Below are positions 12,239 through 53,094 of a stretch of 64,000 bases of DNA, piece after piece. Position numbers and translations under genes: made by a program. The stretch is from Dictyostelium discoideum. Its lineage: Eukaryota. The stretch is from contig CM000151.3 in NCBI GenBank assembly GCA_000004695.1, forward strand, positions 5,440,001 through 5,504,000, read 5' to 3'. Position 1 is the stretch's first letter. Every line of letters begins with the position of its first letter. The notes below the pieces were generated by a model. That model did not search any database, was not told where the DNA came from, and was given only the letters and a program-made list of their open reading frames with translations.

Positions 12239-12265
12239 ATTGTTCTTAAATTTTCACAAAAAAAG

Positions 12266-12337
12266 CTCCCCATTCGGGAATCGAACCCGAGGTACCAGTG
12301 TGAAAGACTAGAGTGTTACCGACTACACCAATGAGGA
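12266..12337 (-). tRNA. tRNA-Glu (anticodon UUC), copy 1.
   Basis: The reverse complement reads TCCTCATTGGTGTAGTCGGTAACACTCTAGTCTTTCACACTGGTACCTCGGGTTCGATTCCCGAATGGGGAG. The acceptor stem pairs 7/7 (one G:U). The anticodon loop is CTTTCAC. A and B boxes are present. An oligo-T terminator follows the 3' end (plus 12258..12264). Confidence 0.85.
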
Positions 12338-12581
12338 ATTTGTTGAAATTTTTTAATATTTTACCTATAAATAAAGATATAAAAAATGTTATCCAATTCA
12401 AAAAATTTCGTTATTCCATTCAAAAAAATAAAGATGTAAAAAAATGCCTAAACATAATATTTTTAAATATCATTAAAAAGAATTTAAATTTTAAGGTATA
12501 AAACTGAACAGTTTTATAGTTTTTAACAGAAATACGTTATAGCAGGAGTAAAAAAAACCATTATTTTTAAATTTAAAAATC

Positions 12582-12632: not shown

Positions 12633-13727
12633 ATGGTTTATAAATTAATTATTTTAATAATTGTTATAATAATCAATGGAACTATATCTATGATGGTATT
12701 ACCATCAGATTTAAATATTCACTATGTTGGAAGAATTGACAAAACTCAATCCAATCACTATTATTCATTTTCGTGGTCTGGTTGTCAAATTATTGTAAAT
12801 ATTACAGGTATAACAGAAATTAAAGCAATTTTAAATTCAGAGAAACCAAATTGGTTTGATGTATTTATCAATGGGCAATTAAATAATGTTTTTAATGTAA
12901 CATTATCAGCACCACAACAACAAATAATAACTATTGCAAATAATTTAAATAGTAATGATATCTATCAAATAAAGATATCAAAAAGAACAGAAGCAGAATT
13001 TGGACAAGTTAATTTTTATGGTTTCCAAATAGATGATAATGATGAAAATTTCAAACTTTTTACATATAAACCATTAACAAATCGTAAATTTGAATTCATT
13101 GGTGATAGTATTGCAACGGGGTATGGTGATATGGGTAAGGCACCTTGTGCATTCACAGAATCAACAGAGAATGTTGATGTATCATTCGTTTCTGATATTA
13201 CAAATCAATTACTAGGTGAGATGAGTGTAATCGCATGGGAAGGTAAAGGTGTTGTAAAAAATTATGGATCACCAACACCAATTTCAAATCCAAATGAACC
13301 AACATTACCAGATCTTTATCCATACATATTACCATTATCAGATAATAGTAGTTTTTGGAATGCCTCTCAATTCATACCAGATGTGTTAGTTATTAATTTA
13401 GGTTCAAATGATTATACAGATTTACCATACCCACCAAATGATTACTTTCAAGTTAAATTTATTGAATTTGTAAAATCAATCATTATAAACTATAATAATC
13501 AAATTCCAAAGATTTTCTTTATATGTGGTGTAATGGTTAATGAACATCCATGTTGTACAATTACTGAAGCTGTTTCAAATGTTTTCAATGCTACTTATAT
13601 TGATATGCCAAATATTCAAAATTCAAGTGATGACTTTGGTTGTTATGGCCATCCAACTATAATTGCTCATGCTCATATGGCTTCAATTGCAATTCCAATT
13701 ATAAAACAAGTAATGAATTGGGAATAA
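12633..13727 (+). CDS. Secreted SGNH/GDSL hydrolase, CE2-like carbohydrate esterase, with an N-terminal beta-sandwich module.
   Basis: A signal peptide (MVYKLIILIIVIIINGTISMM) begins at the ATG at 12633. The listed ORF start lies upstream in a poly-T tract. SGNH motifs are present: GDS block FEFIGDSIATGYGD, GSND block VINLGSNDY and a His-containing block GCYGHPTIIAHAHMA. Confidence 0.72.
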   Translation: MVYKLIILIIVIIINGTISMMVLPSDLNIHYVGRIDKTQSNHYYSFSWSGCQIIVNITGITEIKAILNSEKPNWFDVFINGQLNNVFNVTLSAPQQQIITIANNLNSNDIYQIKISKRTEAEFGQVNFYGFQIDDNDENFKLFTYKPLTNRKFEFIGDSIATGYGDMGKAPCAFTESTENVDVSFVSDITNQLLGEMSVIAWEGKGVVKNYGSPTPISNPNEPTLPDLYPYILPLSDNSSFWNASQFIPDVLVINLGSNDYTDLPYPPNDYFQVKFIEFVKSIIINYNNQIPKIFFICGVMVNEHPCCTITEAVSNVFNATYIDMPNIQNSSDDFGCYGHPTIIAHAHMASIAIPIIKQVMNWE

Positions 13728-14112: not shown

Positions 14113-14646
14113 CTATATATAAAAATTTATTAATTAGAATTTAATATATATATAAAATATATACATACATTTTTTACAAATGTTTGTGAATTTGGTATGT
14201 TGCTAAATATTTGGTTGGTAGATAAAACACCAGTACGTTTAATTCTGTTTGCAGAGTTGGTTATTTTTAAAGTTGTTCTACGACTACCAAATGAAATAAA
14301 TGAATGGCAATTGCCAATCCTAACGATTAAAAATAAAAGCAACATCTATAAAAGATATCAGCCTTTTTGGAAATACTTTAATACCAATAACCATTTCTCA
14401 TACTTTGGAAATCTCGAAATTGAAACACTTGTGAACCAAATGGTTAGTTGACTGAGAAACTTTAACTTCAACAACAAATGTTGGAACTAAACTTGGTCTT
14501 CCTATAGGTAAAGCTTAGGTCTATATAACACCATTTTAAAGCAATACTTTTCTAATGTAAAAATTATTGTCTTAAACATTTTAAAAAGCATATTTAATTA
14601 ATCGAATGGGAATCGAACCATTGTTCTAAGTTTTTCACAAAAAAAG

Positions 14647-14718
14647 CTCCCCATTCGGGAATCGAACCCGAGGTACCAGTGTGAAAGACTAGAGTGTTAC
14701 CGACTACACCAATGAGGA
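14647..14718 (-). tRNA. tRNA-Glu (anticodon UUC), copy 2. The 72-nt mature sequence is identical to copy 1.
   Basis: It has the same sequence as 12266..12337, an oligo-T terminator (plus 14639..14645) and a downstream exB box GGTTCGATTCC at plus 14608..14619. Confidence 0.85.
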
Positions 14719-14846
14719 ATATGTTGAATTTTTTGTTGTAATAAAGTTAGTCTATAAAATTAATTCTAAGTGTCCACCCTGTAAAAAAAAATAAAATAAA
14801 ATGAGATCTAGCATCTTTTTTTATTAGTTTTTTATTTTTTTTTTTT

Positions 14847-49417: not shown

Positions 49418-49683
49418 TTAATTAGTTATTTGATTAATTTTCATTAAGGAAATAAAAAAAATTAATATTTTATTTATGAATTTTAATTTTGAAAATGCAA
49501 GCAATTATTTTGATTTTGAAAATACAAGTATTATTATAATAAAACTTGTATTTTAAAATAAAAAAAAGTAATTATTATTTTTGTTTAGATTTAAAAACAG
49601 ATTTAATGCATTGAATTTAGAATTTTTAATGTTTAAATATAGAATCGAACCTGTATTTTATTGAAAATTCAATAAAAACCTGT

Positions 49684-49764
49684 TGTTGGCGGCGAGATTC
49701 GAACTCGCGAAGCCGAAGCATAAGAACTTGAGTCTTACCCATTTGACCACTCTGGTACGCCAAC
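49684..49764 (-). tRNA. tRNA-Leu (anticodon CAA), type II with a long variable arm, copy A.
   Basis: The reverse complement is GTTGGCG TA CCAGAGTGGTCAAATGGG TAAGA CTCAAGT TCTTA TGCTTCGGCTTC GCGAGTTCGAATCTCGC CGCCAAC A. It has a 7-bp acceptor stem, a 5-bp anticodon stem with loop CTCAAGT, a T-arm GCGAG/TTCGAAT/CTCGC and discriminator A. An oligo-T terminator follows (plus 49674..49678) and a downstream exB-like GGTTCGATTCT lies at plus 49641..49651. There is no intron. Confidence 0.7.
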
Positions 49765-50251
49765 GAAAATATATGGTTTTTTCCCACAGTAATAGCTGTT
49801 TTCGATTCAAAAAAATGATCTTTTTGGGAACATAATCGTTTAAACTAAACCGCATTATCCCCACTTCTTTCAAATGTTATTTTCTTTTATTTTGATCCAG
49901 AAAAAAAAAAAAATTCAAAAAGAAAAAAAAGAAAAGAAAAAGAAAAGAAAAGAAAAGAAATGGGAAAAAAAGAAATAATTATTTTTATTTCTTATTATTT
50001 CTAAAAAAAACTTTGCAAAAGATTTTAAAAAATGAGTTCAGAAACAATAAATAAATAAAAACACAAAAATCAATAAAAAAGATTAATAAAATAATGCTGA
50101 AAAACAATAAAAGTAATAAAATAAATTTAATATAAAATTTAATAAAAGCCAATAAATTAAAATATATATATTTTTAATTTTATTTTGAAATTTCATTTGA
50201 TTTTTGTTCAAATTAAAGTGAATTATTTTTACAATTCATTTGTTATTATTT

Positions 50252-50299
<48 letters not shown>

Positions 50300-50959
50300 T
50301 AAAAAATTGCATTTTATTATTTCTATCATTAAAATTTTATTTCGATTTCAAAGAAATTTATAGTTTTATCTAGAACATAGTCAATACTATTTTCACTTTT
50401 TATTATATTTATTTTTATCTTAATTTAAATGAGATTTAAATTTTATTATTAAAAAAAATCTTTTTTTCAATTTTTTTTTTTAATTTTAGACATATTTTAT
50501 TTTCTTCTTTTTTCTTTGAAATTATATTTAACAAACACATGTTTCAAATAGTAAAATTTTTTCAAATTTTTTTTTTTTTTTTTTATTATTATAATTTATT
50601 TTTTTTATTATTACATTTTATCTTTTTTTTTATTACATTTTTTTTTTTTTTTTTTAAAATATATTATTATTATTATTATTTTATTGTTTCATTTCGAAGA
50701 AACAAATTTTAAAAAAATTTTATTACTTTTTTGTTTTTAAAATAAATTGATGTAATGTTTGTGAATTAATTTTTATAAATATGAATAATTTTTTTTGGGA
50801 AATATTAATTATCAGAGGATCCAAATAATGAAAAAGAAGAGCAAGAATATCTAATAAATAATATTTAAGATGTTGGGGCTTCTAATTATATTAATACAAG
50901 ATCCCATCAAAATATTTATGATAATTTTTATAATTTGATATAAATAATAAAATAAACAA

Positions 50960-51672
50960 TGTGGTAAATAATATTCAAACTACCATTTCATCTTTACCAT
51001 TATCTCTATTATCACCATTATCATCATCATCATCTACATCATTAGCATTATCAACCGTTTCATCTTTACCATATATGTCAAAAAGATTCACCTTTTCGTG
51101 AAGATTATCAGCAGGTGGAGTACCAGAGTGGTTAAAAAGAGCCATCATTACCATGGAATTCAAAGGGTAAAGTTTCAGAGTGGTCAAAAAGAACCATCAT
51201 TACAATGTAAATCCTTTATGAGAGGAAACTGTTTATTCACACAAGATTAAAATAATAAAAAATGGTATTGAACATAAATGATAATTTAGAGTAGGCATAA
51301 TTTTTTTATATATAATCATATACTATTTTATGATTTATAAATCTTACTAACACTTTTAATATTTTAATTTTTTTTTTTTTTTAAATGAAAAACACCAGGA
51401 TTGGAATTGAAATTCTAGTTGAAATTGTAAATGAAATTGCAATTTGAATTGTAATTTAAAGTCTCAATTACAATTACAATTTCAATTGAAAGTTTCAATT
51501 ACACTCAAATACAATTTCATTTACAATTTCGACCAGAATTTCACTCCAATCCTGGTGGTTGTCCCATTTTTTTTTGAATGGAATAACGAAATTTTTAGTT
51601 GCTTCTTCTTGAGATATAACTCATTTTATTAATTTTCTTATTAGATATTACAGGTGCCTTTTAAGGTTGTAT

Positions 51673-51730
<58 letters not shown>

Positions 51731-52109
51731 GTTGAGGGTGTAGAGTGTGTTTAGTGACGTAATATATTTGTTGAGGTTTGATGGTAGTGCTACTGTGTGT
51801 AGTGGTGAGTTCCAGTGTTTGCTAAATCTTTCGAGTTGTAGGGAGATGATGTTTTTGAATTTTTTTATTTGTTCGTTGTTGGGTGCTTTTTTTTCTTGTC
51901 TGATTAGTTTGTATATGTTGTTTTTTGTTCTTTCCCAGGCTGCTGTTTGAGTTTTCTTTAGTTCGTGTACTAGTAGTTGTTTTCTTAAGTTTTTGAGTGT
52001 TATTCCTTCGTGGATTTTCTTGTTTCTTCTTCTCCAGATGTTTTCGCAAATAATGGCTATGGCGTTGGCTGTTAATGGAATGTCTAGTCTGTTGAAGATT
52101 TCTATTCCC

Positions 52110-52163
<54 letters not shown>

Positions 52164-52520
52164 TTATTTATAGAAAATACTGAGTGAATTATTGTATTTT
52201 TTGAGATGTTTAGGAAGTTCTATTGCGTGAAGAGGTGAGTTCCATTGTCTGTTAAATTGTAATAGCTTTAGCGAGATTAGTGAGTCTAATTTATTTTGTT
52301 CTTCTGGCCGTTGCTTTGATTTGATTCTTAATGTTTTGTTTATAACCGCTTGTGTCCTGTCCCATGCAGCTCTTTGTGTTTTAATTAGTTCAAGTATGAC
52401 TTGTTGTCTGTGAATTATTATTTCTTTTTCATCGTGAATGAGTTTGTTTCTTTTGTGCCATGTGGTTGTCCCTTTTTTTTTTTTTTTTTTTTTTTGAATT
52501 GGCATGTGGTTGTCCCATTA
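50960..52520. mobile_element. Complex repeat cluster immediately upstream of tRNA-Leu copy B. It contains two diverged copies of a poly(A)-tailed, retroelement-like unit of about 350 to 400 bp on the minus strand (bodies about 51728..52110 and 52163..52470, with poly-T tails on the plus strand at 51667..51727 and 52111..52162). There are three copies of the 5'-terminal motif GTGGTTGTCCC (51552, 52472, 52505). Tandem partial duplications of the tRNA-B 5' leader plus D-arm lie at 51118..51190.
   Basis: Local composition shifts from about 80% AT to G+T-rich. The two unit bodies align at roughly 70 to 75% identity (for example GTGAGTTCCAGTGTTTGCTAAAT against GTGAGTTCCATTGTCTGTTAAAT). Each is followed, on the minus strand, by an oligo-A tract. 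The whole cluster ends about 45 bp upstream of the tRNA, the classic position of tRNA-targeted TRE5-type insertions in Dictyostelium. Assignment to a known element family is not possible by eye. Confidence 0.45.
51391..51552. repeat. Long imperfect inverted repeat (foldback) of about 160 bp with arms of about 80 bp, CCAGGATTGGAATTGAAATTCTAGTTGAAATTGTAAATGAAATTG... against ...CAATTTCATTTACAATTTCGACCAGAATTTCACTCCAATCCTGG. It abuts one GTGGTTGTCCC plus oligo-T junction.
   Basis: The reverse complement of 51476..51552 matches 51391..51470 at more than 85%. Confidence 0.5.
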
Positions 52521-52550
52521 AAAGAGCCATCATTACAATGGATTTCAAAG

Positions 52551-52631
52551 GGTAAAGTACCAGAGTGGTCAAATGGGTAAGACTCAAGTTCTTATGCTTC
52601 GGCTTCGCGAGTTCGAATCTCGCCTTTATCA
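52551..52631 (+). tRNA. tRNA-Leu (anticodon CAA), type II, copy B. The internal 66 nt are identical to copy A but the acceptor stem is completely different (GGTAAAG/CTTTATC).
   Basis: GGTAAAG TA CCAGAGTGGTCAAATGGG TAAGA CTCAAGT TCTTA TGCTTCGGCTTC GCGAGTTCGAATCTCGC CTTTATC A, followed by ACAGTTTTT (terminator at 52636..52640). The acceptor pairs 7/7, with G2:U71. Confidence 0.65.
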
Positions 52632-52722
52632 ACAGTTTTTAAAGTTTTCACAGTTTGGACTTGTTTTAAAAAAAAAATCTTCCACATATTTTGAATTCAC
52701 TAGAAATTTTTTATAATAATCG

Positions 52723-52759
<37 letters not shown>

Positions 52760-53094
52760 AATTAAATATTACTTTAAATGTATTTTTTAAGTAAATAGAG
52801 AATGAATTAATTTATAATAGATTTCTTTTTAAAAAAAAAAATAAAATTAAATAAAAAAAAAACAATGTTTTCGTTTATGTTTTATTTCGGTTTTTTTAAT
52901 TTATTTTTTATTTTTTTTTCACGAAAATTTTATTTTTTTTTTTTAATTTTTTATTTTTTAAATACAATTTTTTTTTTTAATTTTTTTTTTAAAATTTTTT
53001 TATTTAATTTTTTTTTAAAGAAATAAACTCCTCCTAATCACCATTTATATATATATATTGATATTTATTAATCGTAAAACAATATCATAAATTC

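Follow-up and report, generated by a model that had tools for sequence, protein, structure and literature searches.

The window, a stretch of 64,000 nucleotides of the Dictyostelium discoideum genome, contains two tRNA-Leu genes, A and B, and a block of about 1 kb of TRE5 sequence (51555-52516) located upstream of tRNA-Leu(CAA) B. The block is in an upstream position relative to both of these flanking genes. TRE5-A, formerly called DRE, is a non-LTR retrotransposon of D. discoideum that targets tRNA genes. Three elements, designated E1, E2, and E3, share the minus-strand orientation; the 5′ end of each is turned towards tRNA-B, with poly(A) on the far side (Table 1). Read along the minus strand from the tRNA gene, the order is the leader, GGGACAACCACATG, CCAATTC-A23, a second copy of GGGACAACCACATG that continues without a gap into GCAC... 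of E2, then E1, TGGGACAACCAC, and a foldback. The end of E2 reads ATAAATAAAT-A49, the start of E1 reads (AA)TTGGGG..., and the end of E1 reads CCATTC-A9.

Table 1. Features of the TRE5 block and its surroundings upstream of tRNA-Leu(CAA) B, in window coordinates. TSD, target-site duplication.
Feature	Position	Strand	Evidence or detail
tRNA-leader minisatellite, ~1.9 units of 52 bp	51114..51213	+	leader -29..-1 and tRNA +1..+23 in each unit
Foldback, 166 bp, ~80-bp stem	51393..51558	.	dG -55 kcal/mol, z = -12.7
TSD1 distal copy, TGGGACAACCAC, 12 bp	51555..51566	-	matches AATGGGACAACCAC beside the leader at 52506-52519
E1, 5′-truncated TRE5-C-like element	51567..52112	-	match to L001 10244-10748
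E1, terminal A9	51567..51575	-	layout as in L001 copy
E1, 99-bp C-module	51576..51674	-	layout as in L001 copy
E1, internal A53	51675..51727	-	layout as in L001 copy
E1, ORF2 3′ end	51728..52112	-	layout as in L001 copy
E2, 5′-truncated TRE5-A ORF2 3′ end, then A49	52113..52460	-	97.9% identity to L001 copy
TSD2 distal copy	52459..52472	-	11 host nt GGGACAACCAC, extra A, first 2 nt (TG) of E2
E3, extremely 5′-truncated TRE5 insertion, CCAATTC and A23	52473..52502	-	junction reading
TSD2 proximal copy, GGGACAACCACATG, 14 bp	52503..52516	-	perfect direct repeat of 52459-52472 around E3
Native leader, 34 bp, from tRNA-B to first target-site duplication	52517..52550	+	sequence
tRNA-Leu(CAA) copy B, Pol III target gene	52551..52631	+	ARAGORN; Rfam tRNA 54.4 bits

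The first-pass annotation had described nested insertions in an interval starting at position 50960. The cluster was located correctly, but its elements are joined end to end, and positions 50960-51113 do not contain TRE sequence. In addition, a host duplication had been taken for a terminus, and a tail had been seen in what is an internal A-run. The region 50700-51113, which includes a 70-aa ORF, has no relative in the sequences compared and is treated as non-TRE. Upstream of tRNA-Leu A (49765-50320, including an A41 run), no TRE match was found in the small reference set. An Rfam scan of 49500-52800 identified the two tRNAs, chance-level matches across the foldback, and nothing else. The look-up of the exact sequence of a neighbouring TPR protein retrieved one other assembly, in which the structure is identical. 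Assembly GCA_054883475.1 is 99.4% identical to the locus over a 6.5-kb alignment, and between 49600 and 53100 it differs from the window in homopolymer lengths and one SNP only.

The plus strand of the block contains two G+T-rich units (51728-52112 and 52162-52460) that are about 70% identical to each other in nucleotide sequence. On the minus strand, the units are followed by A-runs: A53 at 51675-51727 and A49 at 52113-52161. Both units are open reading frames on the minus strand and represent ORF2 C-termini downstream of the zinc finger; their translations are 44% identical (E = 4e-23). The protein matches of both units are exclusively ORF2 fragments of D. discoideum retrotransposons, one of which has a UniRef name beginning with "Reverse transcriptase z". 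A Pfam search with the ORF2 C-termini returned nothing above the threshold, and zf-RVT matched one relative weakly, below the cut-off. A search of the literature with the sequence strings of the modules gave no match. The family names TRE5-A and TRE5-C-like rest on other genomic copies and published descriptions of features, and not on alignment to a consensus.

The distal unit is part of a longer element. The copy most informative about its layout is positioned in D. discoideum locus L001 (10244-10748), 45 bp upstream of a tRNA-Ser gene, and has its own 14-bp TSD; it is 89.6% identical to E1 over 548 nt. It is composed of the ORF2 end, A35, CCATACAACC...C-module...TTC, and A8. Because the distal unit, A53, and the 99 bp at 51576-51674 together match this single element, they are one element, E1. 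Since the same element type in L001 has an A-run followed by the same C-module, A53 is an internal A-run. The earlier description of two diverged units of about 380 bp with oligo-A tails thus stands with respect to the units, their homology, and the A-runs, but A53 is neither a tail nor the end of an insertion. Similarly, the sequence that had been treated as a third element, with its 5′ end placed at 51552, belongs to E1, and the motif beside it is a TSD copy.

The C-module of E1 is 77.8% identical to that of TRE5-A in a local alignment and 73% identical in a global one, and E1 lacks a B-module in the interval from ORF2 to the C-module. TRE5-C has been described as lacking a 3′ B-module and as having a C-module that shares about 78% identity with its TRE5-A counterpart across the final 87 bp (PMC3159450). 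It is represented by a partial consensus of 879 bp and 18 copies, none of them full length (PMC5006619). The presence of the C-module and absence of the 3′ B-module in E1 fit the published description of TRE5-C, and TRE5-C-like is the safe label. A second non-A lineage bearing a C-module, which is about 77% identical to E1, is present in L001 (7803-8312), and either of the two may be the one named TRE5-C.

E2 consists of 299 bp of the ORF2 end, a stop codon, the AATAAA-like sequence ATAAATAAA, and A49. Its closest relative, at 97.9% identity, is L001 6298-6626, a part of the TSD-flanked 3′ portion of a TRE5-A.1 copy. This 5′-truncated L001 copy contains the ORF2 end, A35, B-module, A-run, and C-module, and finishes with ...GCGTTATCCAATTC-A27. 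It has a 15-bp flanking duplication and is located 48 bp from tRNA-Ser. The L001 element is identified as TRE5-A because its B-module matches the published TRE5-A ORF1 primer Rep-108; the published TRE5-A ORF2 primers Rep-75 and Rep-176 do not match L001, as its copy is truncated at the 5′ end. The 3′ UTR of TRE5-A is formed by the B-module and a 134-bp C-module. E2 has neither of them and stops at the internal A-run, and is therefore a 3′-incomplete fragment of TRE5-A. The "hypothetical protein" annotated over E2 (ACTFIT_003905) is a transposon remnant.

E3 is 30 bp long, and its CCAATTC corresponds to the last 7 nt of the TRE5-A C-module; the family assignment of E3 rests on these seven diagnostic nucleotides. 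Its 5′ end is exactly 48 bp from position +1 of the tRNA, and the perfect 14-bp duplication is present on both sides. Very short 3′-end insertions are common in the sequence examined. In L001, 14 nt and A12 (14295-14320) are inserted 48 bp upstream of tRNA-Ser, and in locus L007, 20 nt and A13 (12960-12999) are inserted inside a C-module. Each of these three single mini-insertions, E3 included, has its own TSD of 12-14 bp. Elsewhere in the window (12387-12428), the 3′ ends of a TRE5-A mini-insertion and a C-like one are positioned 49 bp upstream of tRNA-Glu, with TRE5-A proximal and the C-like end distal, and a single TSD pair brackets both.

The motif GTGGTTGTCCC has three exact copies in the locus, at 51555, 52462, and 52506, against a chance expectation of 0.12; three or more copies occurred in none of 100 shuffled sequences. 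There are no copies in the 144 kb of seven other D. discoideum loci, which contain at least 12 matches to the 3′ end of the TRE5 C-module. Because it is absent from these TRE5-bearing loci, GTGGTTGTCCC is host sequence, and its arrangement identifies it as a duplicated target site and not an element terminus. Each unit had been said to start with the motif. The three copies exist, but only the proximal unit abuts one; the distal unit begins with (AA)TTGGGGAATAG, and the distal copy of the motif overlaps the end of the foldback.

The TSD1 pair brackets E2 and E1 together as a 12-bp duplication, the inner edge of which is 45-46 bp from the tRNA. The 11 host nucleotides GGGACAACCAC in the distal TSD2 copy are the proximal copy of TSD1. 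Since TSD2 also contains nucleotides of E2, E3 was inserted after E2. The suggestion to look for target-site duplications flanking each unit was productive for E3 (TSD2) and for E2 and E1 jointly (TSD1), but the boundary between E2 and E1 lacks one. The motif was duplicated by the insertion of E2 and E1 and then again by that of E3, resulting in three copies; E1 would have arrived first or together with E2, and E3 last. Before the insertions, the site would have contained GTGGTTGTCCCATT once, with the foldback and the leader immediately adjacent to it, and the sequence CCTGGTGGTTGTCCCATTAAAAGAGCC in one copy.

The foldback, previously reported as about 160 bp long, is real, and is pre-existing intergenic DNA. 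Its outer four nucleotides lie within TSD1, and it therefore predates the insertion. Its comparison with the 144 kb from other D. discoideum loci gave one 17-nt hit (E = 0.006) and no significant match.

These observations bear on the possibility that the units are nested copies of a SINE-like family, short (about 380 bp) and non-autonomous, that starts with GTGGTTGTCCC and finishes with an oligo-A tail. Three copies of the motif do lie beside oligo-T, and TRE5-C is known solely from short 3′ fragments (PMC5006619). However, the bodies of the units are coding sequences homologous to ORF2 C-termini, a single unit abuts the motif, and there is no nesting. The motif overlaps a unique foldback and is absent from the seven other loci with their C-module 3′ ends, and its copies act as 12-bp and 14-bp direct repeats around inserts that end in poly(A). 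The units are ordinary 5′-truncated ORF2 3′ ends of TRE5-A and of a TRE5-C-like element, without the discrete termini of a SINE-like family. Ordinary fragments of known elements had been named beforehand as the outcome that would speak against the SINE-like interpretation, which is extremely improbable.

Elements of the TRE5 group are inserted with the 5′ end towards the tRNA gene, 47±3 bp upstream of it (PMC5391098), within a genomic range of 34-95 bp (PMC5391098, PMC5006619). Their TSDs are 10-16 bp long, and new copies settle above the resident ones (PMC9012585). Truncation at the 5′ end is frequent, extra 5′ nucleotides and target-site deletions occur as well (PMC3159450), and stacking of TRE elements at one tRNA gene has been described (PMC5006619). 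At tRNA-B, E3 is 48 bp from the gene, and E2 and E1 were 45-46 bp from it before the arrival of E3. The three minus-strand elements are upstream of a plus-strand tRNA gene, with poly(A) distal. E3 combines A23 with a 14-bp duplication, and E2 and E1 combine a terminal A9 with a 12-bp one. Both units translate to the C-termini of a TRE5 ORF2 (APE-RT-zinc finger).

TRE3 elements and fragments of DGLT-A/H3R LTRs also cluster at tRNA genes of D. discoideum (PMC5006619), but it is most unlikely that the units belong to either. TRE3 sits downstream of tRNA genes, and the block and the related copies are upstream. DGLT-A inserts 13-33 bp upstream and has 265-bp LTRs and no poly(A) (PMC5006619), unlike the poly(A)-ended inserts here, at 45-48 bp; no LTR-like direct repeats were found in the block. 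The units are also homologous to TRE5-A.

With a probability of about 90%, 51555-52516 is a stack of 5′-truncated copies of TRE5 non-LTR retrotransposons at the canonical site, with demonstrated element identities, orientation, distances, and duplications, and a demonstrated insertion of E3 after E2. The expectation of TRE5-type insertions in the position and orientation seen upstream of the tRNA gene is thereby borne out. Target-primed reverse transcription would have placed the copies at this site, 45-48 bp from tRNA-Leu(CAA) B on its upstream side.

E2 and E1 may have been inserted by one event or by two. The arrangement of their sequences points, at slightly better than even odds, to an origin from one chimeric cDNA. 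The reverse transcriptase would have started on a TRE5-C-like RNA bearing a C-module, and would then have jumped to a TRE5-A RNA that ended at an internal poly(A) site after the AATAAA-like signal. A single event is favoured because one TSD pair brackets E2 and E1, because the tRNA-Glu mini pair repeats the architecture of proximal TRE5-A, distal C-like end, and single TSD, and because each of the three single mini-insertions carries its own TSD. It is also favoured because E2 is devoid of the C-module, which has been reported to be essential for TRE5 retrotransposition (PMC3159450). A 3′ transduction has been suggested as the source of the C-module (PMC4559204), and the internal A-run of TRE5-A fits such an origin. 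That both E2 and E1 and the tRNA-Glu mini pair each represent a single chimeric cDNA is a tentative proposal, with the balance somewhat against it; the TRE5-A RNA at tRNA-Leu would then have been polyadenylated at the ancestral, internal site that follows ORF2. No report of chimeric insertions of this kind for TRE5 was found in the literature searched.

Three independent insertions in the order E1, E2, E3 have a probability only a little short of one half. E2 would then have been inserted at the boundary between TSD1 and E1, with a TSD of at most 2 nt (A-only) or a small target deletion; recombination or slippage involving its internal and terminal A-runs would later have removed the tail and the B- and C-modules. 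Target-site deletions are frequent for 5′-truncated TRE5-A (PMC3159450), the additional A at 52461 may represent a TSD of 1 nt, and other TRE5-A copies, in loci L006 and L005, have internal deletions bounded by A-rich tracts. The identities to the nearest copies, 97.9% for E2 and 89.6% for E1, fit a younger E2. However, sequential insertion requires two separate unusual events for E2, the tRNA-Glu pair repeats the architecture without an internal TSD, and the three single mini-insertions each show a TSD of 12-14 bp. Template switching, previously put forward as the source of repeated 5′ or 3′ modules, may explain the E2/E1 junction, which lacks a TSD. If E2 and E1 were copied as one chimera, template jumping lets RNAs without a C-module integrate, and the "dead" TRE5-C family is still being copied in trans.

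The minisatellite distal to the foldback is composed of leader and tRNA 5′-end segments joined at AAA(A) microhomology. The 52-bp tandem unit noted in the first-pass annotation is real, and its copies are 81-93% identical to the true leader and tRNA (52520-52573). It had been placed about 45 bp upstream of tRNA-B, but is actually 1.36-1.44 kb upstream, or about 0.4 kb with the TRE5 block removed, and does not adjoin any end or junction of a TRE5 element. A possible further decayed unit at 51031-51083 gives a weak signal, with a score of 31-33 compared to 25 for the 99th percentile of the null distribution. The acceptor-stem half of the distal unit, GGTGGAG, is intermediate between those of tRNA-A (GTTGGCG) and tRNA-B (GGTAAAG), and that of the proximal unit is GGTAAAG. 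Because the halves differ, the units were copied from the gene at different times.

Similar minisatellites are present at three tRNA-Ser(GCT) genes, where 2-5 copies of a 39-bp unit are cut by later TRE5 insertions, and at a tRNA-Leu(TAG) gene, with a 34-bp unit; a relic is found in D. cf. discoideum. None was found on examining nine further tRNA genes from seven anticodon families (Glu-TTC, Glu-CTC, Thr, Ile, Phe, Val, and Leu-AAG). At the tRNA-Gly gene in locus L009, a separate copy of the leader and 5′ part of the tRNA is located about 300 bp downstream. An origin of the tRNA-leader units as TSDs or 5′ transductions of TRE elements was rejected, as none of them adjoins the end of an element and as the units in L006 and L001 pre-date the TRE5 insertions that cut them. 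The repeats are a separate, older structure and not a product of these insertions. The best guess is that one microhomology-mediated duplication was followed by unequal sister-chromatid exchange between the unit and the gene. The recurrence of such minisatellites at tRNA genes for Leu and Ser may point to a process peculiar to Pol III genes.

TRE elements are present at about 61% of the tRNA genes of D. discoideum, and the literature describes stacks of truncated copies. The cluster is a textbook example of such a stack, built from truncated TRE5-A and TRE5-C-like copies and accompanied by informative TSDs; it is known biology, ordinary for the D. discoideum genome, without a new SINE-like family. 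The locus provides a clean worked example, in which two rounds of target-site duplication at one Pol III-defined position can be read from three copies of a host 11-mer. Two further questions are whether the TRE5 reverse transcriptase makes chimeric A/C insertions, and why minisatellites surround the 5′ ends of some class II tRNA genes.

The copies at tRNA-B resemble TRE5-A in their position at 45-48 bp, head-to-head orientation, 12-14 bp TSDs, and 5′ truncation. Specifically, E2 is nearly identical to the ORF2 3′ end of the TRE5-A.1 copy, and E3 ends with the TRE5-A C-module terminus CCAATTC and poly(A). E1 resembles TRE5-C in its position upstream of a tRNA gene, in the absence of a 3′ B-module, and in the C-module after its ORF2 end, which shares about 73-78% identity with the TRE5-A C-module; among the related copies seen, the longest measures 870 bp. 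It differs in being assigned by published features instead of alignment to the consensus, next to a second non-A lineage in L001.

Like L1-type insertions produced by target-primed reverse transcription, these have poly(A), variable 5′ truncation, and TSDs, and an additional nucleotide is present at the 5′ junction. In contrast to L1, the target of TRE5 is determined by the position relative to a Pol III gene, so the copies stack. Chimeras formed by template jumping of LINEs are known from human U6-L1 (PMC4476161) and Magnaporthe MGL (PMC2104539). As in these chimeras, E2 and E1 are two RNA-derived pieces, each with an A-run, arranged head to tail inside one TSD pair. The difference is that at tRNA-B, where the single event is a proposal, both partners would be RNAs of sister-family retrotransposons.

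Minisatellites with a unit of 34-39 bp, composed of the tRNA leader and the 5' end of the tRNA, are present at tRNA-Ser(GCT) and tRNA-Leu(TAG) genes in the comparison loci and are interrupted by TRE5 insertions. The tRNA genes that carry such an array are all of class II, and none of the nine other tRNA genes examined, from seven anticodon families, has one. At one tRNA-Gly gene, a copy of the leader and 5' tRNA segment is located approximately 300 bp downstream, but it is not tandem.

Positions of tRNA-associated features (window coordinates unless a comparison locus is named)
Feature	Position	Strand	Remarks
Leader + 5' tRNA minisatellites	L001 8313-8440, 10770-10900, 14249-14345; L006 1060-1103; L009 18520-18650
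tRNA-Leu(CAA) A	49684-49764
tRNA-Leu(CAA) B	52551-52631
B-box-like motif AGGTTCGATTCTA	49636-49652	minus
tRNA-Glu	12265-12337	minus
Mini TRE5 1	within 12372-12443		TGTTATCCAATTC-A6; TRE5-A type
Mini TRE5 2	within 12372-12443		TTTCGTTATTCCATTC-A7; variant identical to that of E1, a truncated TRE5-C-like element
ORF over E2	52164-52505	minus	113 aa
Length-variable homopolymer runs	50253-50293, 51675-51727, 52113-52161, 52723-52755		versus GCA_054883475.1
Hairpin	51393-51558

The two tRNA-Leu(CAA) genes of the window differ only in the acceptor stem, where the changes are compensatory (GTTGGCG/CGCCAAC in A versus GGTAAAG/CTTTATC in B). The corresponding stretch of the older minisatellite unit, at 51114, reads GGTGGAG, intermediate between these two forms. 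The B-box-like extra motif approximately 35 nt downstream of tRNA-Leu A corresponds to the element called "ex-B" in Dictyostelium tRNA genes. Similar motifs are found downstream of the tRNA-Ser genes of L001.

Two tandem mini TRE5 3' ends are positioned 49 bp upstream of a tRNA-Glu gene and are enclosed by a single pair of target-site duplications, TAAAGAT(A/G)TAAAAAA. Approximately 56 bp upstream of another tRNA-Glu (14646-14718) is a TRE5-A C-module fragment (14775-14812; CCCTGT-A9-TAAAATAAAATGAGATCTAGCATC) that lacks the final ~35 nt and poly(A). At L007 12940-13030, in a zone flanked by tRNA-Leu(AAG) and tRNA-Val, a mini-insertion of 20 nt and A13 with a 13-bp target-site duplication (GCGTTATCCAATT) is located within a TRE5-A C-module end, on the strand opposite to it. 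In a TRE5 element at L001 7109-7412, the 5' region upstream of the B-module contains a ~200-bp A-module-like segment followed by a second, partial copy of the segment's first 75 nt and then A32.

The 123-aa gene model "hypothetical protein ACTFIT_003905" (P0007) corresponds to E2, the remnant of a TRE5-A ORF2. The corresponding ORF in the window reads through the poly(A) of the mini-insertion E3 as a lysine run. Assembly GCA_054883475.1 differs from the window in the length of the long homopolymer runs, which are 6-14 nt shorter there, and otherwise by only one SNP in 3.5 kb.

Before the insertions, a near-perfect hairpin with a stem of approximately 80 bp was positioned 42-210 bp upstream of tRNA-Leu B. 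The rest of the ~208 kb of D. discoideum sequence compared contains nothing that matches this hairpin significantly. Intergenic hairpins are the source of D. discoideum miRNAs (PMC6161686).
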